From: Saprospiraceae bacterium
GTDB lineage: Bacteria; Bacteroidota; Bacteroidia; Chitinophagales; Saprospiraceae
Assembly: GCA_020631105.1 (NCBI GenBank)
Contig: JAHDHW010000005.1
Location: 26,926-90,925, forward strand
Length of the DNA stretch: 64,000 nucleotides
Direction: 5' to 3'
Positions 2,955-60,072 of the stretch are shown in pieces; within the stretch, counting starts at the first letter, position 1, and each line of letters opens with the position of its first letter. The position numbers and the translations under genes were made by a program. The notes under the pieces are model-generated. The model had not been told where the DNA came from. It saw only the letters and a program-made list of their open reading frames with translations, and made no database searches.

Positions 2955-2974
<20 letters not shown>

Positions 2975-37656: not shown

Positions 37657-38988
37657 CTATGGTAAGATCTCTTCCTTTTCTTTTCGTTTTTTAAATACAA
37701 AATATACTGGAAAGCCAATCAATAAAATGATCATCCCCCACCATGCCGGTCGAGGGACTTGAAGGAGCGTTACAACTACAAATATGCTGGAAAGAACGAT
37801 ATAGATTAAAGGCACAATAGGATAAAGCGGTACCCGTACTGGTCGTTCGCTATTTGTCCGTGTTCTTCTAAACACAAATATGCTAATCGCCGCCAAAGTC
37901 ATGGTCAGGATATCCATAAAAGTGACAAAGGCCATTAATTCATACAAATGCTCAAAAGCCAATATCAAAATGATGGAAATAACTGCCTGCAAAACCATTG
38001 CATTGACCGGTGTTTTGTACTTGGGATGCAACTGCGCTAACTGCTTAAAGAAAAGTTTGTCTTTCGCCATTGCAAAATAAACACGAGGTGCAGAAACCGT
38101 AAATATCCCAATAGCACCAAAGACGGAAACAGCAACTAATAATGAAATAAGTTGGCTCCCCCACTCCGGGAAAATAACACTAAAAGCATCCCCTGCTACA
38201 GTATGTGTAGCCGAAATTTCTGGCAATGGTAACAACAGCATATACACCCAGTTAATCAACAAATACATTACCGTTACGATGAGTACTCCCAACACCATGG
38301 CCCGGGGAACCGTTTGTTTTGGCTTTATAGCTTCACCAGCTACATAAGTCGCCTGATGCCAGCCTCCAATCGAAAAGAATACTCCTACCAATCCCAGGAA
38401 TATAGCCTTCCAGGGGTTTTCAGGAGCATTTGACAGGGTAAAAGAAAAAGTCTCCACATCATTGGTATTAACATACCAGATGCCACATACCACAATAAGT
38501 ATAATCGTTAAGAGCTTGATACCAGAAAAAATATTAGCAAACACCTGCAAAATATTAATCCCAAAAATATTCAATCCGGTCAGGAAGACGATTACCATAA
38601 CAGCCATCAACTCTTTATTCACTCCATCCAAAAATGCAAAAGCCGACATGTATTCTGCAAACAGCTCCGCTAAAAATGCTACCGCTCCACTTGTTATAAT
38701 CAACAAAATCACCCAACCATACAGGAAGCTCACCAAATCCCCGTAAGCTTCTCTTAAGTATACATACACTCCGCCAGCCTTTGGAAACAATCCACTTAGT
38801 TCTGAAAAGGTTAGGGCACCACACAAGGCGACCAATCCTCCTAATGCCCAGATTAACAAAACAAAAGCCTGACTCTCAATGCCTTCAGAAATTTGTCCAG
38901 GTGCGGTAAATATTCCGGCTCCGATACAACTTCCAACCACAATCATCGTCAAACCGTATAGGTTGAGTTTTTGCTTTAATTCTGACAT
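37657..38988 (-). CDS. APC superfamily amino acid/polyamine/organocation permease
   Basis: 443 aa with ~12 hydrophobic helices. The N-terminal LNLYGLTMIVVGSCIGAGIF signature is present. The start lies 2 nt after the SGNH stop. Confidence 0.88.
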   Translation of the reverse strand: MSELKQKLNLYGLTMIVVGSCIGAGIFTAPGQISEGIESQAFVLLIWALGGLVALCGALTFSELSGLFPKAGGVYVYLREAYGDLVSFLYGWVILLIITSGAVAFLAELFAEYMSAFAFLDGVNKELMAVMVIVFLTGLNIFGINILQVFANIFSGIKLLTIILIVVCGIWYVNTNDVETFSFTLSNAPENPWKAIFLGLVGVFFSIGGWHQATYVAGEAIKPKQTVPRAMVLGVLIVTVMYLLINWVYMLLLPLPEISATHTVAGDAFSVIFPEWGSQLISLLVAVSVFGAIGIFTVSAPRVYFAMAKDKLFFKQLAQLHPKYKTPVNAMVLQAVISIILILAFEHLYELMAFVTFMDILTMTLAAISIFVFRRTRTNSERPVRVPLYPIVPLIYIVLSSIFVVVTLLQVPRPAWWGMIILLIGFPVYFVFKKRKEKEEILP

Positions 38989-38990
38989 AT

Positions 38991-39737
38991 CTATTTGCTT
39001 ATGGAGTTTAATACTACTGGCTCAATCAATGCTTCCCAGCCATCATATCCTTTGGCATTCATGTGCAGCATATCTTCGATAAAGATAGAGGAATCCGCCT
39101 CCCCTGAAGGAAGCAACATCGCTGGGCTACAGTCTACGAAATGACGCTTCGCTTTACCTTCCAGGTAAGCACTAATCATACGATCGCCTTCCTGATACTG
39201 TGGCCAAAGGGCCCATCTCGCAGGGGAAGGTTTCATGGCAATATAGATTAAGGTCGTATTAGGTAAGCGCTCCTCGATCATGCGATCGAGTTTTTGGAAA
39301 GATTCAAAAACTTGATTTGCATTCGCCCCTTCAGCGATATCATTTTCACCACAATAAAGGACAATAGTCTCCGGAGCATAAGCAAAAATAATGCGCTCCG
39401 CATAATGGATGACCTCAGGAAGAGTAGATCCTCCAAAGCCACGATTAAGTACTGGGACGGGGGCAAAATCTTCGGCCAGACTGGACCACATTCGAATACT
39501 GGAACTTCCGGTAAACAGTACCGTACCTTCTGCTTTGGCACGTGTAGCATCAGCCGTTTCGAAAGCAATAATATCTTTCTCGAAATGATTTAAAGCCTTA
39601 CCGGTATATGAGGTATCTACCGCAATAATTTCTGCAGGAGCAGGTTCCACAAGTACGGTATTAGTATCAGATTGCTCTGATGTACCGCAGGAAGTAGCAA
39701 AACATAAAGTGATTGCTAGCCAAAGAAGGTTTTTCAT
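38991..39737 (-). CDS. SGNH/GDSL-type hydrolase (esterase), lipoprotein
   Basis: Lipobox FATSC. Block I VLFTGSSSIRMW, block II NRGFGGSTL, block III LYCGENDI, and a C-terminal D..H (EDMLHMN). Confidence 0.75.
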   Translation of the reverse strand: MKNLLWLAITLCFATSCGTSEQSDTNTVLVEPAPAEIIAVDTSYTGKALNHFEKDIIAFETADATRAKAEGTVLFTGSSSIRMWSSLAEDFAPVPVLNRGFGGSTLPEVIHYAERIIFAYAPETIVLYCGENDIAEGANANQVFESFQKLDRMIEERLPNTTLIYIAMKPSPARWALWPQYQEGDRMISAYLEGKAKRHFVDCSPAMLLPSGEADSSIFIEDMLHMNAKGYDGWEALIEPVVLNSISK

Positions 39738-39802
39738 TTTTCGTTTGTTTATCCCCTAAGATAAACATAAGCTCAAAAAAAACGATGATTACTTCTTATT
39801 CC

Positions 39803-41194
39803 TTATTCACTTTTACCAAGTTGATTCGGAGAAGTTTTTACGCGATCTACGATCATCTCTCCAATCTTTTGTCCTTGTTCAACCCCAAGATCAATTGCTG
39901 GCCGATAATGAATACCGCCATATAATCGGCTAACTGCTGCCTCGGCGCTTGCCTCTAAAAATGAATTGAACTCGCGCGGTGGTAAACCATATTCTACTTC
40001 AGTGCTGTCAACAAACTGGAACTCCGCACCAAATAAATTCGTCAGCGCTACCGCCGAAGCTGTAGAAATCACAGAGTGGCCAGAGGTGTACTCCGGAAAC
40101 GGAGGCGTCTGTAAAGTTGGTAACCAGTCTTCATCAACATAGGCATTAATTACTGTTTCGGGACGAATAAGGTTACTTCGATATTTTTCATCCCAGCAAC
40201 TGATAAAAGCATCAAACAAGGATATCGAAACTAAGGTATAAGCTTCCAAAGTTTTCATCATATCTGCTTTCGCTTGTTGTGTCGCAATATTGGTAATCCC
40301 CATCCAGTGTCCACCAGGCGTAATTTTTTTGGTAGCATACATAACGTGTCCGGTATGATGCGAAACATAAGGATTACAATCCCAGAATTTTGCAATAGCA
40401 ATTTGTTCTTCATCCAGGTTTTTCACTACATCGTACACCTCCATCATCTCCTTGTAAAACTGACTATTCTTATCCTCACTAAATGGTGTGGGAGGCGGCG
40501 GTGTAAACTGTTGAGCAGAATCAATCACCAGCGTACGAATCTCTCGCCAGTGTGGCTCAATTCCATCCATGTAATCCGGAGGTGTTGGTTTCCACATCGC
40601 AGGATCTTCCGGTATCGTATACTTAGGAAAGGTCCGTGTTTCATTATACATATCCGTACTCACCCATTTTAAAACGTGGTCACTTACCAACTGTCCATAA
40701 GCGATAGAATTATCATACACCTCCTTTGGCATTCCAAGGTCTTTGAACTCCTGATAAATTTCCTTCTGAAACATTTCCATTTTTTCTTCAGAGAAAATCA
40801 AAAACTTACCCGTCTTTAAAAAAGCATGGATGCTTGCCAATGGAAAACAGATTTCCTGATCAGCAGCAGGCTGAGGTACATTTTGTAATTCATTTAACTG
40901 TCCCTGCAAGGATTGATACTCCGGATATTCATGTCGTAGCACTTCATATGCTGCAACACTTGGATAAACATAGATTCGACTAGCCTGTGGTGGAGAGAAG
41001 ATATCATGCACTATGATGTCCGTTAAGCGCTTCATTGACCGGTGGAAGTAGGCCGGATTCTTTGCCTCTTCATTATAATTTGGATTCACCTCAGCCGTAA
41101 AGCTAGGATCAGTGTTTGATCCGGGACGGCAGCTCCAGGTAGTCATAAAAATACTACCCAGCAATACGAAAGCGATGATTTTACCTATGTGCAT
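39803..41194 (-). CDS. PAP2-superfamily / vanadium-dependent haloperoxidase-like lipoprotein (paralog 1)
   Basis: Lipobox-like TTWSC. Motifs KYRSNLIRP (Kx6RP), TSGHS (SGH) and SRLYGGIHYRPAID (SRx5H). Collinear with the 43429-44760 product. Confidence 0.8.
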   Translation of the reverse strand: MHIGKIIAFVLLGSIFMTTWSCRPGSNTDPSFTAEVNPNYNEEAKNPAYFHRSMKRLTDIIVHDIFSPPQASRIYVYPSVAAYEVLRHEYPEYQSLQGQLNELQNVPQPAADQEICFPLASIHAFLKTGKFLIFSEEKMEMFQKEIYQEFKDLGMPKEVYDNSIAYGQLVSDHVLKWVSTDMYNETRTFPKYTIPEDPAMWKPTPPDYMDGIEPHWREIRTLVIDSAQQFTPPPPTPFSEDKNSQFYKEMMEVYDVVKNLDEEQIAIAKFWDCNPYVSHHTGHVMYATKKITPGGHWMGITNIATQQAKADMMKTLEAYTLVSISLFDAFISCWDEKYRSNLIRPETVINAYVDEDWLPTLQTPPFPEYTSGHSVISTASAVALTNLFGAEFQFVDSTEVEYGLPPREFNSFLEASAEAAVSRLYGGIHYRPAIDLGVEQGQKIGEMIVDRVKTSPNQLGKSE

Positions 41195-41401
41195 AAGAAT
41201 ATAATTTTCTGATCAAAGGACTGCAAAATTACGAAAGATATCATAAACCCGTGCAGCCTGACGCATGACAAATATCAATGGCTGCAGACATTAGATTCTG
41301 ATATTGCCTTAGGTTATTAACGTTTATTCGCTGGTATTAGCCGCCTCTGATCGACTCCAAGGTATTTTAAGCTTAGAGAAACCCTGCCGTAGGAACTATC
41401 C

Positions 41402-43432
41402 CTACTCGACTTTATAAGTTTTCTTATCCAGACCGATTCCCTTTAAGGTTAAGGATTTAATTTCCTTTGGAAGCTTTTGTTTGAACTGCGTAATGCCTTC
41501 GTCAGAGATATCCAAGCCACCCAAACCATTAAGCACAGCTTGTAACATTCCTCCGGCACCCGTAGCAAAATAAGGGTTCGTTCCACCAGCTGTTTCTGCG
41601 AGCACCCCGAAAGGAGGCACTTTATTAGGCTCATAGCTTTTGATGAACAATTCGTATGCTTTTTCATGTTCCCCCAGGCGAGCATAGAGCGCAGCGAGCA
41701 CTGAATTCCCCATTGCTGGTCCACCGGGAGACATCCGAGGTTCGTAGTATCGAAGGTCTTTAAGGATCTCTTCTTTATCCGTGATGATCTTCATGGGGTA
41801 AGCTAAAAGATTCGCATCACCTTGTTTGATAATTGCACCATTATAGGTTGCGTTTTCCCGGGTCACTCCATCAGGGAATTTGAGGATTGGAATATTATCC
41901 GCCACATGGTTCCAGTCCGGATCAGGAGTCACGCCTAATTCTTGAGCAGCTTGCGTAGCGTAGCGAAGTACGGTAATCGCCATTCCGTTGGTGTAGGCAT
42001 TATTATCAATATTTTCTTCAAACTCATTTGCCCCAATTACATTATTAATGTCATATTTCCCTGGGCCATTTCGCTCTACCCTGCTCGTCCAGAAATCCGC
42101 CACTTCTTTAAGCATTGGATAACCACGTTCGCGCAACCATTCTTTATCTTTTGTCACTTGATAATATTTCCAGAATGCCCAGCCGATATCACCGGTGATG
42201 TGGTGTTGAAATGGTCCGGTCAAAGCCCAGACTGGTGTATCTTCTGTCCCTTCTGCACTTGATTCCCAAGGGAACATTGCTCCATCATAGCCATGAGAAA
42301 AAGCGTTTAGCCTGGCTGCTTCCAGTCTTTCCCAACGATACTCTAGTAGGGACTTGGCAATCTCTGGTTGTAACATCAAAAGAGGCGGATACATCCAGAT
42401 CTCAGTATCCCAGAATACATGACCATTATAGCCCAGGCCTGACAAGCCCATCGGCGAAAGGCTGTAAGCCGTACCGGCACGAGCAAATGAATACAAATGG
42501 TAAATCGCAGAGCGAACATCTCGTTGCACCTGAATATCTCCATCAATGATGATATCGCTTTCCCATAATTTATCCCAGGCTGCATCGTGACGACGAAGTA
42601 ATCGTTCTGTTCCTTCCAAGGCCGCAAATATCGTCAACCGCTCTGCTTCGTTATGGCAATCTTCAAAATGCTCTGTAGAAGTTGCAGATGCGACTACACT
42701 GAATCGGTAGGTCTCCCCTGCTTTTAGCTGCTTATTAAATTTTGCATAGTGCATATTATAATCCCAGTCCTCATGAATAACATCAGGCTCGGAACCATGC
42801 TTCTCTTTAAAAATAAAACTATTCGAAACGGCTACCTTATGTTTTCCGGAAGGGCTCTCCGCAACAGAAGTCAATAAAGGAATTGTCACATGGGGTCGAT
42901 CAATCTCGCTGTATAAATTACGCACATCGTTCAGGTGATTCGGCGCTTCAATTACGGACATTGGTGTAATACGGCAGGCTTCCTTTGCGGTGACTTCTAC
43001 CATCACCATTGATGTAAATGGTAGGTGACGCAAGGCCATCATCGTATGTTTTACACTTACTTTTCCTCCAACATCAAAGCTTGTGGTAAGTGCAGCTTTT
43101 TTCATATTGAGCACTTGCCGATAGTTAGAGATATTATTTCGATTAACACGGACACCATCAACCTCCAGATTCATATTGACATGATTGAAAGTTTTGAGGA
43201 TGTTAGATACCCGGCCGCGCTGATAGTAGTCGTAGACTCCGTTAAGGACAACGTCCTGTACCCGCATGGGTTCGGGCGAGGATACGAGTCCGATCATGCC
43301 GTTAGCACAAGTGATACCAAAATAATTATTAGGGTCAAAGTCCTGAGCAGTAATTGTCCAGGCATCATTATTAGATTGCGCAGTTGCAAATTGCAGTAAG
43401 CCCAATAAGCCTAGGAAAAGTAAAGTTCTCAT
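41402..43432 (-). CDS. Glycoside hydrolase family 65 protein, secreted
   Basis: Signal peptide MRTLLFLGLLGLLQFATAQ. GYNGHVFWDTEIWMYPPLL and GAMFPWESSAEGTEDTP are GH65-type motifs. The ATG overlaps the upstream stop (ATGA at 43429-43432). Confidence 0.75.
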   Translation of the reverse strand: MRTLLFLGLLGLLQFATAQSNNDAWTITAQDFDPNNYFGITCANGMIGLVSSPEPMRVQDVVLNGVYDYYQRGRVSNILKTFNHVNMNLEVDGVRVNRNNISNYRQVLNMKKAALTTSFDVGGKVSVKHTMMALRHLPFTSMVMVEVTAKEACRITPMSVIEAPNHLNDVRNLYSEIDRPHVTIPLLTSVAESPSGKHKVAVSNSFIFKEKHGSEPDVIHEDWDYNMHYAKFNKQLKAGETYRFSVVASATSTEHFEDCHNEAERLTIFAALEGTERLLRRHDAAWDKLWESDIIIDGDIQVQRDVRSAIYHLYSFARAGTAYSLSPMGLSGLGYNGHVFWDTEIWMYPPLLMLQPEIAKSLLEYRWERLEAARLNAFSHGYDGAMFPWESSAEGTEDTPVWALTGPFQHHITGDIGWAFWKYYQVTKDKEWLRERGYPMLKEVADFWTSRVERNGPGKYDINNVIGANEFEENIDNNAYTNGMAITVLRYATQAAQELGVTPDPDWNHVADNIPILKFPDGVTRENATYNGAIIKQGDANLLAYPMKIITDKEEILKDLRYYEPRMSPGGPAMGNSVLAALYARLGEHEKAYELFIKSYEPNKVPPFGVLAETAGGTNPYFATGAGGMLQAVLNGLGGLDISDEGITQFKQKLPKEIKSLTLKGIGLDKKTYKVE

Positions 43433-44760
43433 TTTTTTAATTTTATATTTTCGGTAATATATTGGCCAACTTTTTTACCCTGGTCAACGCCGTATTCAAT
43501 GGCTGGACGAAAATGAATCCCACCGTATAAGCGACTAATCGCAGCCTCATCCGCTGCATCATAAAAGGAGTCAAAGGTTCTGGCAGGTAAGCCATACTCT
43601 ACCTCTGTACTATCTACAAATGCGAAGTTATCCCCAAACAAATTAGTCAGCGCAACCGAGGATGCCGCTGAGATTACACTGTGCCCACTGGTATGCTCCG
43701 GAAACGGAGGCGTCTGTAATAAAGGCAACCAATCCTGGTTTACATATTGATTGATAACCGTTTCAGGGCGTGTCAGATTACTTCGATATTTTTCGTCCCA
43801 GCAACTGATAAATGCATCGAATAAAGAAATCGCCACAAGCGTATATGCCGCAGTGGTTTCCATAAAATCAGCATTGGCTTTTTTGGTAGCAATTTGTGTA
43901 ATGCCCATCCAATGTCCTCCGGGAGAAATCTTTTTGGTCGCAAACATGATGTGACCCTCTACATGAGATACAAAGGGATTACAATCCCAAAATTTCGCAA
44001 TCTCAACATGTTCCGGTTCTGCCTCTGATACCGCATTATATACTTCCATGGTCTCCTGATAAAACCGGCTGTCTTTTTCAAGACTAAAGGCTGTAGGAGG
44101 TAAAGGGACGAATTGTCTGGCTGAATCCAGCACCAGCGTTCTGATCGTATTCCAATGAGGTTCAATACCATCCATGTAATCGGGCGGTGTTGGTGTCCAG
44201 CGTTCTGGATCTTCCCTTACATCATACTTTGGAAAAGAGCGGGTTTCTTTATAATTATCCGTACTCGACCATTTAACAATTGCTTCGCTCATCGCTTCGC
44301 CGTAGGCCAGCGAACGGTCAAAGACCTCCTGCGGGATACCAATTTCTTTAAACGCTTCCAAAAGCTCATCCTGGAAAGCGATCAGTTTTTGTTCAGAAAA
44401 AATGAAATTTTTGGATGTTTGCAAAAAGGCATGAACACTAGCCAAGCCATAACAATAGGCTTTATCTTTTTCAGGCTTTGGTAAGCCTGCTAAGCCATCT
44501 AACTGTCCTTCGAGTGATTGGTAATTCGGATACTGGTGAATGAGCACCTGATAGGCCGCTACACTAGGATAAACATAATTTCGGCTTGCTACCGGAGGGG
44601 AGAAGATATCATGGACGATTACATCCGTCAGACTTTTCATAGACCGATGGATGTACTCCGGCTGAAGCGCATCTTCCTGGTAATTTGGGTTGACTTTTTC
44701 TGTTTTACAGCCGAATAGGCTAACTAGCAAAAGCGTAAAGATGATTACTTTATTCTTCAT
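43429..44760 (-). CDS. PAP2-superfamily / vanadium-dependent haloperoxidase-like lipoprotein (paralog 2)
   Basis: Lipobox SLFGC. Motifs KYRSNLTRP, TSGHS and SRLYGGIHFRPAIE. Long collinear identity with paralog 1 (for example DIIVHDIFSPP, FWDCNPFVSH, ISLFDAFISCWDEKYRSNL). Confidence 0.8.
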   Translation of the reverse strand: MKNKVIIFTLLLVSLFGCKTEKVNPNYQEDALQPEYIHRSMKSLTDVIVHDIFSPPVASRNYVYPSVAAYQVLIHQYPNYQSLEGQLDGLAGLPKPEKDKAYCYGLASVHAFLQTSKNFIFSEQKLIAFQDELLEAFKEIGIPQEVFDRSLAYGEAMSEAIVKWSSTDNYKETRSFPKYDVREDPERWTPTPPDYMDGIEPHWNTIRTLVLDSARQFVPLPPTAFSLEKDSRFYQETMEVYNAVSEAEPEHVEIAKFWDCNPFVSHVEGHIMFATKKISPGGHWMGITQIATKKANADFMETTAAYTLVAISLFDAFISCWDEKYRSNLTRPETVINQYVNQDWLPLLQTPPFPEHTSGHSVISAASSVALTNLFGDNFAFVDSTEVEYGLPARTFDSFYDAADEAAISRLYGGIHFRPAIEYGVDQGKKVGQYITENIKLKK

Positions 44761-44824
44761 TATTCAAATCACTTTGAGTAGTTAGAGAACATTTAACTCC
44801 TGTTTGGGCTGATGTCTTTTCGTT

Positions 44825-48076: not shown

Positions 48077-48174
48077 GGTTATATTTTTGGTGCCTGATGA
48101 GGGATAAAACCATCAAAGCACTGAAGTTGTTTTTATCTTTAAAAAGAATCAATGCTCCCGTTTCAGCGGGTGAG

Positions 48175-51519: not shown

Positions 51520-51566
51520 TCAAGTATTAATTTTAAAGTCTTAGAAATTAAATCGCTAAGTACGTT

Positions 51567-52142
51567 TTACATAGAAAGGGAATGCTCTTTTCGTAAATCC
51601 TGAATTTTGACCGTAACATCTTTATTAGAAAGTGGATACATAAGGATTTGACGATTCCCGTCAACTTTGGCGTAGGCTTTCTTCTCCTCATCCAGTTTGA
51701 TTTCTATAAATGGATTACCAGAGTACTCCTTCATATATTTTTCCCGGAGTTTTTCCATTAGCGCCTCAGACTGATAAGTTTCATTCCACGGAGACCACTT
51801 CATATAACTCATCTTCATATGCATGCCGTGCATAACCTTTTGCTTATCAAAGATCCCATAAAAAAGCATTTCAACTTTGTCAGAATCAGCAATGGTAGAA
51901 TCCATGACCATTATGTGTTTGGCAAACTGATTACCCGGTCCTTGTGCGACTAATTTTTGTTTATTCAAATTCCAGCAAATATCAAAGAACTCTTTCCGGG
52001 TTTGGCCCATCTTCATTCCAAAAATCAGATCTTCATGAATTTCTCCGGATTTCAATTCTGCTTTTACCACTTTAGAATACTCTGATTCACAAGCAGTGAA
52101 GAGTATTCCCAAAATCAAAAAGAAAAGTAATTTTTTCAACAC
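51567..52142 (-). CDS. Hypothetical lipoprotein (191 aa) embedded between CRTAC1-like paralogs
   Basis: Lipobox LFTAC followed by ESEYS. No recognisable domain. Tightly spaced (20 and 47 nt) within the operon. Confidence 0.7.
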   Translation of the reverse strand: MLKKLLFFLILGILFTACESEYSKVVKAELKSGEIHEDLIFGMKMGQTRKEFFDICWNLNKQKLVAQGPGNQFAKHIMVMDSTIADSDKVEMLFYGIFDKQKVMHGMHMKMSYMKWSPWNETYQSEALMEKLREKYMKEYSGNPFIEIKLDEEKKAYAKVDGNRQILMYPLSNKDVTVKIQDLRKEHSLSM

Positions 52143-52162
52143 GACTTTATTATTTAATTGTC

Positions 52163-55100
52163 CTAATATTTATAAATCTTAACCTGCTGATTATTTACGC
52201 CAATTAAAACTTCATTTTCCGACAGGTTTTCGAATGCTCTAATCTCTCCGCTAATATTTAGAGGGAAGACCTTTGCATACCTTATTTCGTTCCCGCTTTT
52301 TGCTCCCTTTAACAACCATCCTTTTGAAGCATCATCTCTTCCAAATTGTGGTTTGGTTAAGTAATGATTCCCACCTATCAAAAAATCCAGGGTTCCATCC
52401 TGATCCACATCACTTGTAGTCACTGCATGGATAGAAGAGAATTGGACTTCAGCTGGTAGCGGCTGTTCTTCAAAACGATTGTCTTTTAAAAGATACAGTT
52501 TACTTTCCAGGGTATTCAGCGAAAGCTTTATACTTTGTTCTAATTGTTCTTCAGAAAACAAATCGCCCATGGTCGCTCCTGCATAATCTTTATAGTAAAC
52601 GTATTTGCGTTTCAACACAGGTAATTGAGACATTAATTCATCCATATCCAGTGAAGGATAAACCTTATTATTGACCTGCTCCGCTAGGATTTGTTCCTGG
52701 CTACCATTTGCATCAAAATCATTAATGTACAATAGGTGTTGTGAGGTGACTGCGCTATTCTCTCCGACATTACCTACAAATAAATCCGGGGTCCCGTCCT
52801 GATTAAAATCATCAACCAGCACCGTATTCCAAAGACCTTTAGTATTTGCAAGTCCGAATGATTCATTTGCCAGCTTAAACTGCCCCTCGTTATTAACGAA
52901 TATACTGATGTCCATCCATTCCCCGACAACAACAAGATCCAGTAAACCATCAGCATTGAAGTCTGCCCATTTTGCATCGGTAATTATTCCCAGGTTTTCG
53001 AATGCAGGTGTATTAACTAGTTCGAAATTATTCGCTCCGATATTTTTGAATAGATACCCTGAGCCTGGCAAACCGTAAACATTATTACTATTCTGATCTC
53101 CCACAAATAAATCAGGTAAACCATCATTATTATAATCACCAATAGTAACAACTCCGGTAGCGATTGGGTTCGAGAATGGAATTGCATTTTTGCTTTCCTC
53201 AAAGCGCCCGTTTCCTTCGTTGATATAGAGCACATCATGATACTCATTTGCCTTTGGTGAAAATGCGGTACCACCGTGAGCAATATAAAGATCTTGATCT
53301 CCATCCTGATCGCTATCAAAAAATACGGCATCAACGACTTCGGACCGTTTCTTATTCGCAAAAGGTGCAGTAACTTCTTTAAGCTCCTCTTCATTAAAGA
53401 TAAACAAGCTGGAAGTTTGCTCTTTTCCGCCTCCTGTAAAAATCATTTTTGAATTTCCATCTTCATTCACTGCAATTGCGGGCCCAGCGGAAGTGTTCAT
53501 CTTAAAAAGTAATCGCTCCCGATTAAATTGATTGAATTTTAGTTGACGATGTACAAAACTTAAGGTATCCACCAAAGTGAGTATATTCTGATTACTCGCT
53601 GATAATACCGCTGACATTTCTTGTGTATTATCGCTGCTCTCTTCAAACTCGTAACTAGTGTTAATCTTAACATCTCTTTTCGTAATGGATTGTCCATTTG
53701 GCCAAATAATCTTTAGGCTATCTATACCTTGGCATTGTCCAAGTCCGATGGATAAATGATTAGAGACACTAGACTGAAAGCCCCTTGATGGATATTGTTC
53801 GGTCATAAAGGTTTGCCCGCAAGCATAAGCAATAGTTTTTGCGCCGACAGCACGGGTATTTTTACCTTTTCCTTTTAAAGAAATGCTGATAAAATTGTGG
53901 TTTAAGCGTTCGCTTTTGTTCTCATAAACAAAGGACGGTGCGTTTACATTATTAAACACCAGGTCAAGATCTCCATCATTATCTAAATCTCCATAGGCGC
54001 AACCATTGCTAAAGCTCTTTGCTCCAAGACCCCATTCATCAGAGTAATTCTCAAAGTTAAAATCTCCCATATTCTTAAATGCAAAATTAGATACTGCCTC
54101 CGATGGCATTGCATCAATGAGCTTGGTAATCGCATTATTTCCTCCTTCATCTATGGAGTTTTTGACCTTGGAGTCATTGGCCATAAAGGCTAAATAATCC
54201 CGATCTAACAAATCTTTATAAATGCCATTTGCTACTACAATATCTTTTAAACCATCATTATCAAAGTCTTGCATCAGGCAGGACCAACTCCAGTTTGTCG
54301 CCTCTACCCCGGCCTTTCGACCAATTTCCAAAAAACCTGCAGCGCCCATATTGCGCTGAAGCATATTTCTTGGAAATTGATGAGCGTAGCCTTTGGATAC
54401 TGCTAAGGAGTATTTTTTCCAGGAGTCATAAATGGCTTTCGTTTTCTTTCTACCCGATGTACTTGGCAACATCTCCGTAATCATCAGGTCCGGTAAGAGG
54501 TCATTATCAAGGTCCGCAACGTCAGCGCCCATTGACCCCAGAGGAAAACATTCAAAAAAGGACTCCCCAGATTCTACAAAAGATTTTCCTTCCTGATTGA
54601 GATATAAATAGTCTTTTTCAAAAAAATCATTGGACACATAAATATCGGTCCATCCATCCAGGTTAAAATCACTTAGGGTAATCCCTAATCCAAACCCTAT
54701 TTCACTACTAAAAATGCCAAGTTCCTGAGATACATCAACGAAGCGACCGTCTCTGTTTTCGAAGAACTTATTCCCGTTCTCACTATATTCTTTTCTTCTG
54801 TCTTTTACCAGGTCAAAACCTCCGATGGATCTTAGAGAGTTATTGAGCAGGTAGCAGTCCAAATCTCCATCTCTATCATAATCAAAAAAAGCAGCCTGGA
54901 TTGAAAGGCCAGTAACATCCAGTCCGTAAGCTGCGGACTGTTCCTCAAACTCGAGATTTCCTTTGTTGATAAACAACTCATTATATCTATGTTCGCCACC
55001 AGGTTTCCCTGCCTTACATACATAAAGATCGAGTAAGCCATCACCATTAATGTCTACAAAACAAGCGCCGGAAGACCATACATCCGAACAGGCCAAACCT

Positions 55101-55411
55101 GTTTTTTTCGTTACATCCTCAAACTCCCAGTTTCCTTTATTGAGGAACATTTTATTATCTACTACATTCCCGGTAAAGTATACATCAATAAGACCATCGT
55201 TATTAATATCTCCCAAAGCCACACCACCACCATTGTAAAAATTACGGTACGTGTAAGGATTAAATTCTTCTGTATAATGGAGTTCGTTAGTGAAAGGAAT
55301 AGTATCATCACTCTTAAGGGTAAAGAGTCGATCATCATCATTACTACACGCTTGCAAAAAGATTAGAAAGAGGGCAGCACCGTAAAGTAGCAAACGATTT
55401 TGGGCTAGCAT
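52163..55411 (-). CDS. FG-GAP/VCBS repeat + ASPIC/UnbV domain lipoprotein (CRTAC1-like), paralog c
   Basis: Lipobox FLQAC followed by SNDDD. GDINNDGLIDVY, VDINGDGLLDLYV, FDYDRDGDLDCYL, GDLDNDGDLDLVF. ASPIC/UnbV segment PSRGFQSSVSNHLSIGLG...LKIIWPNG. Confidence 0.88.
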   Translation of the reverse strand: MLAQNRLLLYGAALFLIFLQACSNDDDRLFTLKSDDTIPFTNELHYTEEFNPYTYRNFYNGGGVALGDINNDGLIDVYFTGNVVDNKMFLNKGNWEFEDVTKKTGLACSDVWSSGACFVDINGDGLLDLYVCKAGKPGGEHRYNELFINKGNLEFEEQSAAYGLDVTGLSIQAAFFDYDRDGDLDCYLLNNSLRSIGGFDLVKDRRKEYSENGNKFFENRDGRFVDVSQELGIFSSEIGFGLGITLSDFNLDGWTDIYVSNDFFEKDYLYLNQEGKSFVESGESFFECFPLGSMGADVADLDNDLLPDLMITEMLPSTSGRKKTKAIYDSWKKYSLAVSKGYAHQFPRNMLQRNMGAAGFLEIGRKAGVEATNWSWSCLMQDFDNDGLKDIVVANGIYKDLLDRDYLAFMANDSKVKNSIDEGGNNAITKLIDAMPSEAVSNFAFKNMGDFNFENYSDEWGLGAKSFSNGCAYGDLDNDGDLDLVFNNVNAPSFVYENKSERLNHNFISISLKGKGKNTRAVGAKTIAYACGQTFMTEQYPSRGFQSSVSNHLSIGLGQCQGIDSLKIIWPNGQSITKRDVKINTSYEFEESSDNTQEMSAVLSASNQNILTLVDTLSFVHRQLKFNQFNRERLLFKMNTSAGPAIAVNEDGNSKMIFTGGGKEQTSSLFIFNEEELKEVTAPFANKKRSEVVDAVFFDSDQDGDQDLYIAHGGTAFSPKANEYHDVLYINEGNGRFEESKNAIPFSNPIATGVVTIGDYNNDGLPDLFVGDQNSNNVYGLPGSGYLFKNIGANNFELVNTPAFENLGIITDAKWADFNADGLLDLVVVGEWMDISIFVNNEGQFKLANESFGLANTKGLWNTVLVDDFNQDGTPDLFVGNVGENSAVTSQHLLYINDFDANGSQEQILAEQVNNKVYPSLDMDELMSQLPVLKRKYVYYKDYAGATMGDLFSEEQLEQSIKLSLNTLESKLYLLKDNRFEEQPLPAEVQFSSIHAVTTSDVDQDGTLDFLIGGNHYLTKPQFGRDDASKGWLLKGAKSGNEIRYAKVFPLNISGEIRAFENLSENEVLIGVNNQQVKIYKY

Positions 55412-55454
55412 TTTTTGTATAGTCTTCTAAATAAAACCTAAAATTAATGAAAAA

Positions 55455-55478
55455 GGGTTACCTCCGAAGAGGTAACCC
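55455..55478 (-). terminator. Hairpin/terminator immediately after the susD-like gene (likely partial terminator)
   Basis: GGGTTACCTC-CGAA-GAGGTAACCC is a perfect 10-bp stem. On the minus strand it is followed by TTTTTCATT. It lies 26 nt past the SusD-like stop and 44 nt before the next ATG. Confidence 0.65.
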
Positions 55479-55503
55479 CTAAATTTAATATCTTAAATTC
55501 ATA

Positions 55504-57105
55504 TTAGTACCCAGGGTTCTGCGAAAGCGTTCCACCTGAAGCTTGAATTTGATCGAATGGAATTGGGAATAAGTTTACGTGATCCGAAGGATCCGCAGGG
55601 TGTTCCCACCAAGCATCATTGTATTTTCCGAAACGGATCAAGTCCGTTCTACGGCTTGTTTCCTGGAACATCTCACGACCTCTTTCTGCAAGGAAACCAT
55701 CCGCGTCAATACTACTTAAAGCAGATACACGAGCTCTTTCTCTTACAACGTTTACGTCAGGAAGTGCCATACTCCAGTCTCCAGCATCTCTAGCCATAGC
55801 CTCTGCACGCATTAAGTAAACATCTCCAAGTCGAAGAACCGGGAAGTCATTACTCATGTCAGGACGACCAAATTGCTTAAAGCTGAATTTACCAGGACGA
55901 GCACCAGCCTCACGAAGAGAGTTAGGTGTTAACTCATTGATTGATGGAGTGTAGCTTAATACAAGATTTCCATCATCAGATGCATAATCAAGTACTGCAG
56001 AACCACCAAAATCTAACTGGTCACCAACGATGAAACTAGCTTGCTTACGAGCATCTCCATCTTCGAAAGAATTATAGAATTCTTCCAAAGTTGCGTACCC
56101 ATTCCAAGGCTGAGCATCAAAGTTCCAAGTAAACTGACTTGAGTAGTGAAGATTCATTTGAGAGAAGTTCATACCTCCTGCACTCGCTTCATCATAGAAT
56201 ACAGCGAAAATGTGCTCAGGATTACCTTCATTATTCGCAGCAAATACTGCAGCGAATCCTTCCAGCTCATCTGGGTCAGCTTCTACACCTGCACGTTTAC
56301 CTAAGTTGGCAACTGTACAACCTTCACCACAAAGACGGTAAACACCACTATCAATGATGTAACCAGCAGCTGCTGCTGCTTCCGCCCATCTTGCAGTTCC
56401 TGTGTATACTTCAGCGTTTAGGTATAACTTAGCTAAGAAACCTAAAGCTGCAAATTGATTAATCTGGTATGCACTTGCATCAGTACCCAATGGGCTATTT
56501 GTTAGATCCATAGTACTAGATACTTCAGAAATATCTAAAGCAGCTAATAACTCTGACTCTACAAAATTAAATACATCAGAACGACTTGATTGAGCAACAT
56601 CAACACCTGGCTCAACAATCAACTTAACGTTTCCGAATAAGTCTAATAGTCTCCAGTAGAAATATGCTCTCAAAGCACGTGCTTGAGAAGTTTGATTAGC
56701 ATCTAAAGTACCACCAGCTAATAATTCGTTTACCGTGTTAATAGCACCATAAGTTTGGTTCCATGTTCCGTTAACGAATGCGTGAGTAGGACCATAAGTG
56801 TGCTGGTGTAACTCAATTAAGATACCACCATCAAACCAGTCACCACCTTTAGCACAGATTACCATCTCATCAGATGGAATTTCCTGTACAGAGTAATATC
56901 CACCGTGGTTAGCTGTACCTGCGTTCCTTAATTCCGCATAAGCAGCAGACAAAGGAGTACTCTCTTGTCCTCCAGAACCACCAGATACACCTTCCACCGT
57001 GATATTAGTTGTTACATCTCCTACCAACTCTTCTTCAAGATCGGTACAAGACTGTATTGCGAATAATACCGCAACAGCAAATAATATTTTCAAAAATTTA
57101 TTCAT
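55504..57105 (-). CDS. RagB/SusD family nutrient-uptake outer-membrane lipoprotein
   Basis: Lipobox AIQSC. C-terminal ...LIRFGKYN...NLFPIPFDQIQASGGTLSQNPGY is typical of SusD-like proteins. It starts 18 nt downstream of the SusC-like gene. Confidence 0.92.
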   Translation of the reverse strand: MNKFLKILFAVAVLFAIQSCTDLEEELVGDVTTNITVEGVSGGSGGQESTPLSAAYAELRNAGTANHGGYYSVQEIPSDEMVICAKGGDWFDGGILIELHQHTYGPTHAFVNGTWNQTYGAINTVNELLAGGTLDANQTSQARALRAYFYWRLLDLFGNVKLIVEPGVDVAQSSRSDVFNFVESELLAALDISEVSSTMDLTNSPLGTDASAYQINQFAALGFLAKLYLNAEVYTGTARWAEAAAAAGYIIDSGVYRLCGEGCTVANLGKRAGVEADPDELEGFAAVFAANNEGNPEHIFAVFYDEASAGGMNFSQMNLHYSSQFTWNFDAQPWNGYATLEEFYNSFEDGDARKQASFIVGDQLDFGGSAVLDYASDDGNLVLSYTPSINELTPNSLREAGARPGKFSFKQFGRPDMSNDFPVLRLGDVYLMRAEAMARDAGDWSMALPDVNVVRERARVSALSSIDADGFLAERGREMFQETSRRTDLIRFGKYNDAWWEHPADPSDHVNLFPIPFDQIQASGGTLSQNPGY

Positions 57106-57123
57106 AACTAAAATCTTTTAGAT

Positions 57124-60072
57124 TTAGAAATTTAAGTTAACACCTAAGATAAACGATCTAGATGAGAAGTAGTTGTTTCTTCTTTCTATACCAGGAGACA
57201 AAACGTCAGATCCTTGATCAACAAGGTTTGGCTCTGGATCGATACCTGTATAGTTAGTGATTACAAATGGATTCTGGAAAATTAAAGATACATTCATACC
57301 TGTAAAAGCAGAATTCTCAAGTGCAATTCTTCTAGAAATCGTTAAGTTATCTAATTTGAAGAAATCAGCTTTCTCAACATATAAAGAACTAAATCGAGCA
57401 GTTGTTAAACCATCAACTGCCTTATCAGTGTTAACAAAGTTATACGAAGACTGAGTTGATAATCTTGGCTCATAGAAAGCACGGAATGTGTTTACTAAGC
57501 TGTGACCAAAAGCTCCTCGGAAGAAAGCATTGATCGACCAATCACCAATAGTAACTTGGTTAGTCCATCCTAATTCTAAATCAGGTAAACCATTACCAAG
57601 CACTTCAAAATCCACATCTGGATCTAATGCTCTATCCTGAGCAGTGATTAGTTGACCATCACCGTTCACGTCAGCAAATACAGGGTTACCTTCTTCTACA
57701 CCAGTGAAAACAGGTCCCCAGATATTTCCAATCTCTTCACCAACCTTTACTAATAACATGTTCGTACCATTCTGACCAGGAGAACCTAAGTTTGCTCTGG
57801 TTTCTGCATCCAATACATATTCTTCAAGAACTGTTTTGTATGTAGATAATACGATACCTGTGTTATAGTTTACATTAGAATTACGAACAACATCATAATT
57901 CAAAGCTAATTCAAGACCTTGAGTATTTAATTTACCAGCGTTCTCAAAACGTCTGTCTACACCAAATACAGCAACATCAACTGTTCTTTCTAGGATGAAG
58001 TCAGAGATATCACGGTTATAAAGATCTAATGTTGCAGATAATTTACCAGCAGTAATTTCAACACCTAAGTTGATCTCTGCTTTCTCTTCCCACTGTAGAT
58101 CCGGGTTAGCAGCTCTTGCCAACTCTGTAGAAACAGCACCAGTAGCACCATCGTTTACGATGTTTCTTACTTCTTGTGCCAAACCACTCTGACCAGGAAG
58201 TGCACCAGTAACCCCATAACCTAAACGTACTTTGAATAAATCAACACCTCCAATATCAAGGTATCTGTTTAAGTCAACACCAACACCAAATGCTGGGAAT
58301 AATCCCCATTTGTTGTCCACTCCGAGTTTAGTTGAACCTTCACGACGAAGAGAAGCATTAACGAAAATTGCATTATCAAATGTAAAGTTCGCACGACCGA
58401 AGAATGCAATAATTTTATTTGTAGGAGAAGCATTACTACCTGCACCAATAAAACCTGCATTATTCAAATCCTGAGAAGCCTCAATCAACTTACTGAAATC
58501 CAAATCATTATTTGGGAAGTCACCAATGCTGAAGAACTTATCAAAGAAATCGTCCTCCTGGTAAGAGTAACCTGCTGTAACTCTAAGGTCAGATTGACCA
58601 AAAGATGTTAGGTAAGTTGCAAAACCTTCATATAAGTTGAAAGTAAAATCAGACTCATAGAATTCTGCTAAACCTTTACGAGTTGGGCTAGTTGCATTAC
58701 CACGGAAATTAGCCGTAGTTGGTGCATATTGATTATTGTTAATATCTGTTCTTTGCTGTGCAACACGGAAATTAACTGTCAAGCTAGGCATTAAGTCATA
58801 TGCCAAGTTTACGTTATAATTAAACTCTCTTCGCTCCGTTAAGTTTCTATTCTGCTCTGCAATAGACACAGGATTAAAACTATCAAATAGACCTAATGTC
58901 TCGAAGTATCCTCCAAACTGATCACTGTTGAATGGGAAAGGAGAATTTACACCTAGAACAGGAGCCGTAGGGTTGTACAATACAGCATAACGAAGTGCTT
59001 CAGTATAACCATTTTCTTGATCTCTGTGCGTGTAAGAGGTATTAAAATCAATCTTCAATTTGTCATTGAATGCTCTTGAAGAGAAATTCAAACGAGTGTT
59101 GAATTGATCATAACCGGTATTAATCAAAATACCATTCTTTTCACGAATGTTTGCAGAAATACGGAAAGAAGAATTAGATCCGATTCCACCAGAAGCAGAT
59201 AGCCCGTGATTGTGGCTAAATGGATTCTCGGTAACTTCGTCAATCCAATCTGTTTGGCTTCCTAGATCCGTACCACCAGCAGCAACAAACTCAGTAGGGC
59301 TCAAACGCTGAGTTGCATTAACTGCAGACTCTGTTGAAAACTGAGCATTGTAGGACCATTTTACATCCTGAGATGCAGTTCCTTTCTTGGTTGTTACGAT
59401 GATTACACCACTAGAACCTCGAGAACCATAGATCGCAGCAGCAGATCCATCTTTTAACACACTAATGCTTTCGATATCATTAGGGTCAACATTTTGCAAT
59501 GATGCACCGATAACTCCATCGATAACAACTAATGGCTGAACGTTTGCTCCAACAGTAGAAAGACCTCTCAAGCGAATAACTGCTTGTTGATTCGGATCTC
59601 CTCCTCTGTTGTAAACTTGCAAACCAGCAACCTTACCTTGAAGTAATTGAGCTGGATCAGCTATCACCCCTTGGTTGAAATCTTTAGCAGATACTTCTAC
59701 AACTGAAGAAGTAATCTCTTTCTCTTTTTGAGTACCATAACCAGTAACTACGATCTCGTCCAAAAGCGTACCAGCAGATAATTCAACGTCCATGACATTG
59801 GAAGCTCCAATATCCTGAATCATTGTAGAATAACCAGTATAAGTAATTTGGATTTGAGTAGCACCCTCAGGTACTTCAACTGAATACTTACCGTCGAAGT
59901 CGGTGATCGCCCCCGTTCCGGTACCCACTACGGCAACCGAAGCCCCGATAAGAGGCTCTTTGGTTTCTGCATCAGTCACCGTACCTGTCACTGTACGTTG
60001 AGCCATTGCAAAAGTCCCCATTGCTACGAAAAGCAATAGCAATGCATACTTTAAGTTGAAATTAAGTTTCAT
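57124..60072 (-). CDS. SusC/RagA family TonB-linked outer-membrane transporter
   Basis: Signal peptide, then a carboxypeptidase-regulatory-like domain (TVTGTVTDAETKEPLIGASVAV..TDFDGKYS) and a plug (IVVTGYGTQKEKEITSSV...VLKDGSAAAIYGSRGSSGVIIVTTK). Terminal ...ILGVNLNF. No N-terminal STN/anti-sigma signalling extension. Confidence 0.95.
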   Translation of the reverse strand: MKLNFNLKYALLLLFVAMGTFAMAQRTVTGTVTDAETKEPLIGASVAVVGTGTGAITDFDGKYSVEVPEGATQIQITYTGYSTMIQDIGASNVMDVELSAGTLLDEIVVTGYGTQKEKEITSSVVEVSAKDFNQGVIADPAQLLQGKVAGLQVYNRGGDPNQQAVIRLRGLSTVGANVQPLVVIDGVIGASLQNVDPNDIESISVLKDGSAAAIYGSRGSSGVIIVTTKKGTASQDVKWSYNAQFSTESAVNATQRLSPTEFVAAGGTDLGSQTDWIDEVTENPFSHNHGLSASGGIGSNSSFRISANIREKNGILINTGYDQFNTRLNFSSRAFNDKLKIDFNTSYTHRDQENGYTEALRYAVLYNPTAPVLGVNSPFPFNSDQFGGYFETLGLFDSFNPVSIAEQNRNLTERREFNYNVNLAYDLMPSLTVNFRVAQQRTDINNNQYAPTTANFRGNATSPTRKGLAEFYESDFTFNLYEGFATYLTSFGQSDLRVTAGYSYQEDDFFDKFFSIGDFPNNDLDFSKLIEASQDLNNAGFIGAGSNASPTNKIIAFFGRANFTFDNAIFVNASLRREGSTKLGVDNKWGLFPAFGVGVDLNRYLDIGGVDLFKVRLGYGVTGALPGQSGLAQEVRNIVNDGATGAVSTELARAANPDLQWEEKAEINLGVEITAGKLSATLDLYNRDISDFILERTVDVAVFGVDRRFENAGKLNTQGLELALNYDVVRNSNVNYNTGIVLSTYKTVLEEYVLDAETRANLGSPGQNGTNMLLVKVGEEIGNIWGPVFTGVEEGNPVFADVNGDGQLITAQDRALDPDVDFEVLGNGLPDLELGWTNQVTIGDWSINAFFRGAFGHSLVNTFRAFYEPRLSTQSSYNFVNTDKAVDGLTTARFSSLYVEKADFFKLDNLTISRRIALENSAFTGMNVSLIFQNPFVITNYTGIDPEPNLVDQGSDVLSPGIERRNNYFSSRSFILGVNLNF

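Follow-up and report, generated by a model that had tools for sequence, protein, structure and literature searches.

It is chiefly through SusC/SusD pairs that Bacteroidota import complex organic matter, whether in oceans, soils, sludge or guts, and the substrate of a given pair is usually read from the carbohydrate-active enzymes (CAZymes) encoded beside it. What, then, is the substrate of a pair whose companions are β-propeller lipoproteins and members of a haloperoxidase family? The question is raised by a locus in a Saprospiraceae bacterium (GenBank assembly GCA_020631105.1), which lies within a stretch of 64,000 nucleotides of contig JAHDHW010000005.1 (positions 26,926 to 90,925) that we refer to as the window. 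Eleven consecutive open reading frames (ORFs) on the minus strand of the window (37657-60072) encode, in order, a SusC-like transporter, a SusD-like lipoprotein, propeller lipoprotein c, a 191-aa lipoprotein, propeller lipoproteins b and a, a vanadium haloperoxidase (VHPO)-family lipoprotein (VHPO2), a GH65 glycosidase, a second VHPO-family lipoprotein (VHPO1), an SGNH esterase and an APC-superfamily permease. An initial annotation of this DNA had described the locus as a 22-kb operon led by SusC/SusD, with a cargo foreign to polysaccharide utilization.

Comparison with related loci supports the conclusion that the window holds one form of a conserved, apparently undescribed SusC/SusD-led uptake cassette of the Bacteroidota and not a chance juxtaposition of genes. 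As for the substrate, we tentatively favor the reading, to which we give a probability of roughly 45%, that the locus is the local form of a system resembling a polysaccharide utilization locus (PUL) and directed at a glucose-containing, α-glucosidically linked glycan or glycoconjugate. Coordinates below are those of the window, and features lie on its minus strand (-) unless marked (+).

A conserved cassette led by SusC and SusD

The 162 related loci that we compared consist of 79 loci from reference genomes, three long contigs and 80 metagenome loci. The reference-genome set was anchored on VHPO2 and examined over ±10 kb, with neighbor families defined by de novo clustering of ORFs; it is drawn mostly from the Saprospiraceae, which are the closest relatives, and also from Lewinellaceae, Phaeodactylibacter, Cyclobacteriaceae, Flammeovirgaceae, Roseivirgaceae and Cytophagales. 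The long contigs (from a Flavobacteriaceae isolate, from Lewinella and from a JGI metagenome) and the metagenome loci were anchored on propeller a. Families were assigned with Pfam and NCBIfam profiles, which agree with the SusC, SusD, propeller, PAP2, GH65, SGNH and APC labels of the initial annotation. Individual loci are designated L plus a number.

Six genes form a core whose order (SusC, SusD, propeller c, ∼190-aa lipoprotein, propeller b, propeller a) is all but invariant throughout these loci. SusC and SusD stand directly upstream of the propeller-lipoprotein-propeller-propeller series in all 35 loci with sufficient upstream sequence, and the order is identical in the Flavobacteriaceae isolate, Lewinella and the JGI metagenome contig. 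Carriers of the cassette span several families of Bacteroidota, and contigs from marine metagenomes, those of TARA among them, contain it too. The next gene after the core encodes a VHPO in 27 of 42 informative loci (64%), and a VHPO gene lies within 10 kb in 30 of the 42.

Viewed from VHPO2, the commonest neighbors in the 79 reference-genome loci are propellers recognized by their ASPIC domain (22 loci), GH65 (16), APC permeases (15), SusD (13), M20 amidohydrolases (12), DASS symporters (11), SusC (9), the 191-aa lipoprotein (7), an aspartyl protease/PDZ protein (7), SGNH esterases (5) and GH13 (5), and at least one window family or recurrent partner is present in 47 of the 79. These genes come in shuffled orders, such as GH65-VHPO-APC-M20, VHPO-SusC-SusD-propeller-lipoprotein, propeller-propeller-GH97/GH65-VHPO, three propellers followed by VHPO-APC-GH13, and VHPO-DASS-SGNH-APC-GH13. 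Such retention of content despite changes of order is what one would expect of functionally linked genes. The initial annotation had made its proposal of a single system depend on synteny in related genomes, and there the core proved invariant, with GH65, APC, SGNH and GH13 recurring beside VHPO or propeller genes.

The same annotation had supposed that loci pairing CRTAC1-like and vHPO-like genes with SusC/SusD are annotated in genomes but have no defined substrate. A full-text literature search returned no paper linking SusC/SusD to ASPIC, UnbV, VCBS, FG-GAP or haloperoxidase; subscription papers fell mostly outside this search, so that absence from it is not proof. The large surveys of marine PULs that were consulted mention none of these five terms.

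Several variations on the cassette were also seen. A DASS (Na+-coupled anion) symporter gene directly follows the VHPO gene in 11 of the 79 loci (L006, L007, L019, L022, L026, L029, L044, L045, L068, L081 and others), and Lewinellaceae and Phaeodactylibacter repeatedly show a triad of VHPO, APC and M20 amidohydrolase genes. Altogether the slot after VHPO is occupied by four families of inner-membrane transporter (APC, DASS, SSS and MFS), according to lineage. Some cassettes lacking a VHPO gene (L084, L118, L127, L152) carry directly after the third propeller gene a second TonB-dependent receptor of ∼790-820 aa that is not of the SusC type, and genes labeled as SusC follow propeller 3 in L138-L140, L153, L154 and L162.

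The SusC/SusD pair and its lipoprotein companions

The SusC-like TonB-dependent transporter (982 aa; 57124..60072) has a signal peptidase I (SPI)-type signal peptide, matches TIGR04056 at 584 bits and contains CarbopepD_reg_2, plug and barrel domains. Its closest solved structure is 8AA4 (250 bits), the SusC of the dextran utilisome of B. thetaiotaomicron. Lying 18 nt away, as in the adjacent susC/susD pair by which a PUL is defined, is the gene for the SusD-like lipoprotein (533 aa; 55504..57105), a SusD_RagB family member whose lipobox cysteine (Cys20) is followed by TDLEEE and whose closest matches in the PDB are 3JYS and, second, the starch SusD 3CK7. Lipoboxes are present in eight products of the locus (SusD, the three propellers, the 191-aa protein, VHPO1, VHPO2 and SGNH), and in the initial annotation the acidic residues behind several of these cysteines were said to resemble a surface export signal. 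For SusD this holds, in that the acidic signal is clearly conserved among orthologs. Among the locus lipoproteins compared, SusD is alone in this, and the evidence for the propellers and VHPO is equivocal.

Three large lipoproteins of a single family follow: paralog c at cassette position 1 (1082 aa; 52163..55411), with FG-GAP_3 in eight stretches, UnbV_ASPIC and 11 Dx[DN]xDG motifs; paralog b at position 2 (1093 aa; 48238..51519), with FG-GAP_3, UnbV_ASPIC and 12 Ca2+ motifs; and paralog a at position 3 (1083 aa; 44825..48076), with FG-GAP_3 and UnbV_ASPIC in a tandem of two CRTAC1-like units. The number of Dx[DN]xDG Ca2+ motifs per paralog is 10-12. The profiles confirm the description of these proteins as ∼1085-aa Ca-loop propellers occupying the positions otherwise held by surface glycan-binding proteins (SGBPs) and endo-glycanases. 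Identity among the three is 35-36%, and yet each has its own orthologs at its own position in other cassettes: c-type proteins fill position 1 in 41 of 44 loci, while positions 2 and 3 are taken by b-type and a-type proteins, respectively, in 46 of 46 loci each. Because such low identity between paralogs goes with position-specific orthologs, the arrangement points to an ancient triplication with non-redundant roles. Homologs of the propellers number more than 8,000.

An AlphaFold2 model of propeller a (predicted local distance difference test score, pLDDT, 88; predicted template modeling score 0.87) contains two propeller plus β-sandwich units in tandem. The best fold match is murine CRTAC1 (9ETN; template modeling (TM) score 0.70 on the target), followed by generic multi-propellers of the DDB1 type. 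The 50 PDB matches listed for this model include neither a lyase nor any other enzyme fold, and the idea that the propellers might be PL11-like polysaccharide lyases was dropped on this result.

Between propellers 1 and 2 lies the gene for the 191-aa lipoprotein (51567..52142), in which ESEYS follows the lipobox Cys18, and a gene for a lipoprotein of ∼190 aa always stands at this place in related cassettes. The protein scores above threshold with no Pfam or NCBIfam family. Its AlphaFold2 model is of high confidence (pLDDT 93) and was compared with the PDB with a SusE/F-like or other known binding fold in mind; there was no match at E ≤ 1e-3, and the best TM scores, 0.33-0.40, were to a DUF4309 protein. 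An exhaustive search gathered 456 representatives of the family at 50% clustering, all of them stand-alone proteins of ∼190 aa without a Pfam model. They have in common a very conserved start, C-[EKQ]-S-[ED]-Y, an invariant Cys56-Trp57 and an invariant D161-G-N-R, and the family would merit a definition of its own.

The locus encodes no SGBP of the SusE/F type, the corresponding slots being taken by the propellers and the family-less 191-aa lipoprotein. From the modeled folds we infer that the three propellers and the small lipoprotein may be non-catalytic binding or scaffold parts of a utilisome-like complex.

The GH65 enzyme and a cargo centered on glucosides

A clue to the substrate comes from the GH65 enzyme (676 aa; 41402..43432), which matches the kojibiose-hydrolase-type equivalog NF053734 at 1135 bits (cut-off 800) and aligns over its full length with FjGH65A (7FE3) at 54% identity (E = 3e-243). 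With the active-site and subsite residues of FjGH65A as reference (PMC8626586), the catalytic pair is kept (general acid E472, general base E616), as are W343, D344, K538 and Q539 of subsite -1 and W391, E392 and T407 of the glucose-specific subsite +1. P575-A576 stand where a phosphate-binding Ser-Ser would be, and F625 is conserved as well. The sole change among the residues compared is that of W473 (subsite +2) to Phe. Given the equivalog score, the identity and the retention of catalytic and subsite residues, the protein very probably cleaves Glc-α1,2-Glc as an α-1,2-glucosidase of the periplasm. Retention of the +1 glucose subsite favors this disaccharide over a glucosylated aglycone. In the initial annotation the enzyme had simply been called secreted; family and signal peptide hold, and the location can be narrowed to the periplasm by the SPI-type signal with Q after the cleavage site. 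The second-best PDB match of the enzyme is PGGHG, which together with the amino-acid-type permease raised the idea of a collagen-type Glc-Gal-hydroxylysine glycopeptide as substrate; the FjGH65A-like +1 glucose subsite disfavors it.

GH65 is not an isolated glycosidase. On the same strand further downstream lies a gene for a cytoplasmic GH13 α-glucosidase of the TreC/oligo-1,6-glucosidase type (545 aa; 34815..36452; Alpha-amylase, 555 bits; NF008183, 589 bits against a cut-off of 535), which has no signal peptide and is a probable distal member of the locus. GH13 recurs in ∼10 of the 162 related loci, and accompanies VHPO, APC or the cassette in L007, L027, L035, L092 and L100. The assertion that GH65 and the esterase were the sole CAZyme-like enzymes can therefore not be maintained. 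As in a PUL, CAZymes are co-localized with the susC/susD pair, GH65 within the locus and GH13 downstream of it. The esterase itself, an SGNH/GDSL lipoprotein (248 aa; 38991..39737; Lipase_GDSL_2, 44 bits), retains blocks I, II, III and V (GSSS, GG, GEND and D222-x-x-H225) and occurs with VHPO and APC in 4-5 related loci.

The last of the eleven genes encodes an inner-membrane permease of the APC superfamily (443 aa; 37657..38988; AA_permease_2, 216 bits). Its best NCBIfam models, LAT (220 bits), FrlA (168) and BcaP (163), all score far under their cut-offs, and an APC permease accompanies VHPO in 14-15 of the 79 loci. In other lineages the cassette is equipped differently. A GPH/sucrose-like MFS (MFS_2) transporter is present in 12 related loci and a YidK-type SSS transporter (NF007790, 774 bits) in ∼12, and the VHPO gene is followed by one for an MFS or SSS transporter in 21 of 35 non-edge cases. 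The observation that an APC permease stands in place of an MFS/SSS sugar transporter is thus correct for the window and fails as a trait of the system: because the transporter slot usually holds a GPH-like MFS or YidK-type SSS protein, the APC permease is a lineage-specific substitution and not a defining feature.

The enzymes carried by related loci have the same flavor. Their glycosidases are GH65, GH97, GH13 and GH77 with CBM20, and they are joined by a 3-keto-disaccharide hydrolase, a GMC oxidoreductase with its small subunit, an FGGY sugar kinase and a GFO/IDH/MocA enzyme nearest to the glycoside 3-dehydrogenase BT_2158; matches to the 3-ketoglycoside families fall under the curated NCBIfam cut-offs. 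In divergent cassettes of ∼40% identity (L147, L152 and L157, also L103, L110 and L125), the series of propeller genes is interrupted by those for a GMC oxidoreductase with its small subunit and for a 3-keto-disaccharide hydrolase, with GH65 coming afterward, which points to an oxidative route for glucosides.

With a glucoside-dominated cargo in relatives, sugar transporters as the usual permeases and a glucose-specific +1 subsite in GH65, the earlier view of a cargo outside the logic of polysaccharide utilization, serving a non-glycan substrate, finds no support. Together, these observations suggest a system that obeys the logic of sugar use, in which glucose and α-glucosides keep recurring, and it is from this pattern that we infer the substrate. 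A non-glycan or otherwise non-classical substrate (phenolic, halogenated or iodinated, organophosphate, or an amino-acid conjugate) would require the haloperoxidase to be the key enzyme, with APC, DASS and M20 proteins handling its product and the α-glucosidases peripheral. Such a scheme accounts well for VHPO accompanying the core more constantly than any other partner (27 of 42 loci), for the recurrence of VHPO-APC-M20 and VHPO-DASS sets that include no glycosidase, for propellers and a small lipoprotein unlike known glycan-binding proteins, for the absence of an endo-glycanase from the locus, and for a permease nearest to the LAT and FrlA (fructoselysine) transporters. We nevertheless regard it as unlikely, given that the cargo of other lineages is overwhelmingly of the sugar type (MFS, SSS, GH65, GH97, GH13, GH77, 3-ketoglycoside enzymes and a kinase), that GH65, with its glucose-specific +1 subsite, is translationally coupled to VHPO2, and that the nearest characterized SusC and SusD come from α-glucan systems.

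Two vanadium haloperoxidase-family lipoproteins

VHPO2 (443 aa; 43429..44760) and VHPO1 (463 aa; 39803..41194), which are 64% identical to one another, resemble the iodoperoxidase Zg-VIPO1 of Zobellia galactanivorans (4CIT) over their full length, with 55% identity (E = 3e-157) and 54% identity (E = 6e-153), respectively. In the alignment to 4CIT, both conserve the Lys, Arg, Ser-Gly-His, Arg and axial His that we take to be the vanadate site as given for Zg-VIPO1 by Fournier and colleagues in 2014. Conservation of the vanadate-site residues is general among VHPOs, which react H2O2 and a halide to a hypohalous acid, HOX (PMC11871015). Precomputed Pfam domains of VHPO2 are VCPO_2nd (PF22778) and PAP2 (PF01569). 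With vanadate-site residues, full-length similarity to an active enzyme and the VCPO_2nd/PAP2 pair all present, the label PAP2/vHPO-like can be sharpened: both proteins are bona fide members of the VHPO family and are predicted to oxidize halide. Homologs of this family number more than 8,000 and, according to record titles, are abundant in non-marine Bacteroidota.

VHPOs have the PAP2 fold and active-site residues in common with PAP2 phosphatases, which raises a question about the reaction in vivo. Were the two lipoproteins acid phosphatases of the PAP2 type, the target might be a phosphorylated glucose polymer, either teichoic-acid-like or a phosphoglycan, with kojibiose and esters. Some lipoteichoic acids do carry kojibiose and ester groups, which would give GH65 and the SGNH esterase their roles; in addition, Pfam assigns PAP2 to both proteins, the family abounds in non-marine, iodide-poor Bacteroidota, the locus encodes no source of H2O2, and the gene after VHPO in 11 loci is one for a DASS anion symporter. 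The identity of 54-55% to a proven iodoperoxidase and the VCPO_2nd domain typical of haloperoxidases speak for peroxidase chemistry instead, and a phosphodiesterase is not encoded in the locus, so that we consider phosphatase action on such a polymer very improbable.

A bolder proposal is that the haloperoxidase is itself an oxidative depolymerase. The propellers would hold a recalcitrant glucose polymer while VHPO makes hypohalous acid beside it, in a halogen-chemistry counterpart of attack by lytic polysaccharide monooxygenases or the Fenton reaction; oxidized (keto) glucosides would then enter via SusC/SusD and be finished by GH65, GH97, GH13 or 3-ketoglycoside enzymes. We think this improbable, but if true, it would be the first glycan utilization system driven by a haloperoxidase and would provide a first function for bacterial CRTAC1-like proteins.

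One transcript or several?

The coordinates, strand and lengths of the eleven ORFs are exactly those of the initial annotation. Recomputation also reproduced its spacers (from susC to APC, 18, 92, 20, 47, 161 and 64 nt, an overlap of 4 nt, and 207, 65 and 2 nt), the eight lipoboxes with their quoted post-Cys residues and the ATGA sequence of the overlap; SusC and GH65 alike have SPI-type signal peptides. The 4-nt overlap, between the VHPO2 stop and the GH65 start, reads ATGA and joins the half of the locus formed by the core and VHPO2 to the half that begins with GH65. Upstream of susC is an AT-rich leader of 407 nt (27% GC; 60073..60479), read from the sequence as the presumed promoter region.

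Within the 92-nt spacer between susD and the gene for propeller c is a terminator- or attenuator-like hairpin (55454..55479) with an 11-bp stem, a UUCG loop and a U-run, and the spacer as a whole folds at -26.5 kcal/mol (z = -4.5). In 36 of 45 related cassettes (among L038-L158) this junction likewise has a comparable hairpin with a T-run, its sequence not being conserved. Because a like element recurs at this place despite differing sequence, we suggest that it is a conserved attenuator setting SusC/SusD above the downstream lipoprotein genes. By direct inspection, further hairpins lie inside the 161-nt and 207-nt spacers and a hairpin with a T-run lies 3' of the GH13 gene. The 207-nt spacer also has a TAnnTTTG motif 37 nt 5' of the VHPO1 start (∼0.12 expected by chance). 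Scans for sigma-70 promoters (46 against 51.8 in shuffled sequence, by a tool whose coverage does not extend to Bacteroidota promoters) and for intrinsic terminators (16 against 16.1) gave counts at the level of shuffled sequence and are therefore uninformative on operon structure.

The claim of a 22-kb operon thus stands as to gene order and strand. A single transcript is not established by these data, because a conserved terminator-like hairpin follows susD and GH65-VHPO1-SGNH-APC stands alone in other genomes. The locus looks like a fusion of two modules that are also found apart, one consisting of the core and VHPO2 and the other of GH65-VHPO1-SGNH-APC(-GH13). Such a structure raises the possibility of a mosaic of independent units without a common substrate, namely a SusC/SusD-propeller core (with VHPO2), GH65-VHPO1 and SGNH-APC(-GH13). 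GH65-VHPO-APC-M20 without the core in Lewinellaceae and Phaeodactylibacter would fit a mosaic, as would the core and VHPO without GH65 or APC in most metagenome loci, the hairpins in the 161- and 207-nt spacers, the TAnnTTTG motif before VHPO1, the conserved hairpin after susD and the different gene set found beyond VHPO2 in the closest relative (L003). Other loci bring the units together again: L018, L035, L039 and L071 have propeller-propeller-GH65-VHPO, L027 has three propellers and then VHPO-APC-GH13, and in L147, L152 and L163 a divergent cassette precedes GH65. In the window the ATGA overlap links the two halves, and all genes lie on one strand with spacers that are mostly short. On balance we find independence of the units doubtful.

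As to control of the locus, the initial annotation had found no regulator in the 64-kb window and no STN domain in SusC, and domain scans, extended to all window ORFs of at least 120 aa and to smaller ORFs in the gaps, agree on both points. A search of Rfam with positions 34000-61000 gave no match at E ≤ 1, and the missing regulator is therefore not explained by a known riboswitch or leader. Regulators near related loci are not conserved: 5-9 loci have an ECF (extracytoplasmic function) sigma factor and 3 have a regulator of the AraC type. Divergent from susC is a gene (60480..61727, +) for a protein in which Pfam recognizes a PDZ domain along with two aspartyl protease domains that are retropepsin-like. 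This family adjoins VHPO or GH65 in 6-7 other loci (L005, L013, L015, L036, L059, L066, L086), and the protein might serve the system as a protease in regulation or processing.

A proposed pathway and the evidence against it

For a system directed at an α-glucosidically linked glycan or glycoconjugate, the parts could work together as follows. The three Ca2+-binding double propellers and the small lipoprotein would assemble with SusC/SusD in a utilisome-like manner to capture the substrate, and SusC/SusD would bring oligomers into the periplasm. There, GH65 would strip α-1,2-linked glucose and the SGNH esterase would take off acyl groups. The VHPO lipoproteins, with H2O2 and halide, may serve at the envelope in oxidative conditioning of the substrate or in peroxide removal. 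Small products would cross the inner membrane by the APC permease here and by GPH-like MFS or YidK-like SSS transporters in other lineages, and the cytoplasmic GH13 α-glucosidase would complete degradation.

A number of observations count against this proposal. The locus encodes no endo-acting glycanase, and the window encodes no sugar transporter; the LAT/FrlA-like APC permease suits amino-acid-type solutes better than sugars. No hybrid two-component system (HTCS), SusR, ECF sigma/anti-sigma pair or other regulator was found in the window by the scan described above. The locus provides neither a source of H2O2 nor an oxidase, and a halide-dependent role for VHPO is uncertain because many carriers live where iodide is scarce. 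In addition, 32 of the 79 VHPO-anchored loci (∼40%) contain no tracked family, and VHPO is therefore not exclusive to the cassette. Binding by the propellers is deduced solely from their likeness to a non-enzymatic fold, and cryptic catalysis may exist; placement of the propellers and VHPO at the surface has no backing from a conserved export signal in the ortholog comparison. The kinship of SusC and SusD to α-glucan systems is consistent with the glucoside theme and, at the level of sequence, weak evidence for it. Finally, the related loci are not phylogenetically independent of one another.

Comparison with known systems

Classical PULs and utilisomes such as the Sus, levan and dextran systems of B. 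thetaiotaomicron (White et al. 2023, PMC7618045) have susC/susD, lipoproteins, a periplasmic exo-glycosidase and a cytoplasmic finishing enzyme in common with the present locus. Unlike them, the window locus has no SusE/F-type SGBP, no surface endo-glycanase and no HTCS, SusR or ECF factor; it has the propellers and the 190-aa lipoprotein instead, and in cassettes of its type a haloperoxidase-family enzyme is the commonest accessory gene. The nearest relation through an enzyme is FjDexUL of Flavobacterium johnsoniae (Fjoh_4428-4435), which comprises SusR, SusE/F, GH65, GH66, GH31 and GH97 (PMC10316084, PMC8626586). It contains the characterized GH65 of the ortholog type, 54% identical and with the same active site, and GH97 is found in relatives of the window locus. 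FjDexUL is without propellers or VHPO, whereas the window locus is without SusR, SusE/F, GH66 and GH31; among the families scanned, a GH66/GH31 endo-dextranase with SusR and SusE/F was found neither in the window nor in the 162 related loci.

Zg-VIPO1 (4CIT/4USZ) shares with VHPO1 and VHPO2, beyond 54-55% identity and the vanadate residues, an N-terminus of the lipoprotein type and an origin in marine or aquatic Bacteroidota. Fournier and colleagues reportedly examined it on its own, with algal iodine and defense in view, and we know of no description that links an enzyme of this type to a SusC/SusD cassette. Vertebrate CRTAC1/ASPIC (9ETN) and UnbV of enediyne clusters have the same FG-GAP propeller with Dx[DN]xDG sites followed by an UnbV_ASPIC β-sandwich, but the window proteins differ in being lipoproteins, in having two units in tandem and in occurring as three fixed paralogs beside SusC/SusD. 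To our knowledge, no member of the CRTAC1/UnbV family has a function that could be transferred to them. Genes of the 3-ketoglycoside pathway (a BT_2158-type dehydrogenase and a 3-keto-disaccharide hydrolase) are absent from the window locus. In related cassettes they replace or join VHPO, after the cassette or inside it, which suggests that glucosides are recurrently dealt with by oxidation. For Flavobacteriaceae strain C-21, iodine uptake by glucose oxidase plus a haloperoxidase has been proposed, according to the summary given in PMC5064120; the window locus encodes no oxidase.

In sum, an ordinary SusC/SusD pair and characterized GH65 and VHPO families are already known; what is new, and unprecedented, is the fixed set of accessory lipoproteins and their haloperoxidase partner.

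Other genes in the window

Downstream of the APC gene by 62 nt is a gene for a membrane-anchored protein assigned by Pfam to DUF6090 (249 aa; 36845..37594), whose membership in the locus is uncertain. Farther away, positions 846-5079 (+) hold a carotenoid cluster with an amine-oxidase/phytoene-desaturase-type flavoprotein, Caroten_synth, a lycopene cyclase and a methyltransferase. Four secreted proteins of very large size (5879-10153, -; 10764-16139, +; 22460-25042, -; 31160-33139, -) have sorting domains of the T9SS (type IX secretion system), either CHU_C or Por_Secre_tail, combined with β-helix, PKD, SprB, LRR or Big_9 domains, and a PorP/SprF gene (18722-19678, -) is situated among them. 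At 26252-28974 (-), a PhoD-like phosphatase adjoins a kinase of the CotH family that bears a C-terminal T9SS sorting domain, an unusual secreted pair. The two ORFs cut by the window ends resemble, by eye only, a soluble PQQ-type sugar dehydrogenase propeller (1-587, -) and the GH3 auxin-responsive-promoter family (63512-64000, +).

Implications

Working out what this cassette does would assign a substrate to a common class of "unknown" PULs. It would also give bacterial VHPOs a physiological role beyond defense against algae, and the CRTAC1/UnbV propeller family its first function.

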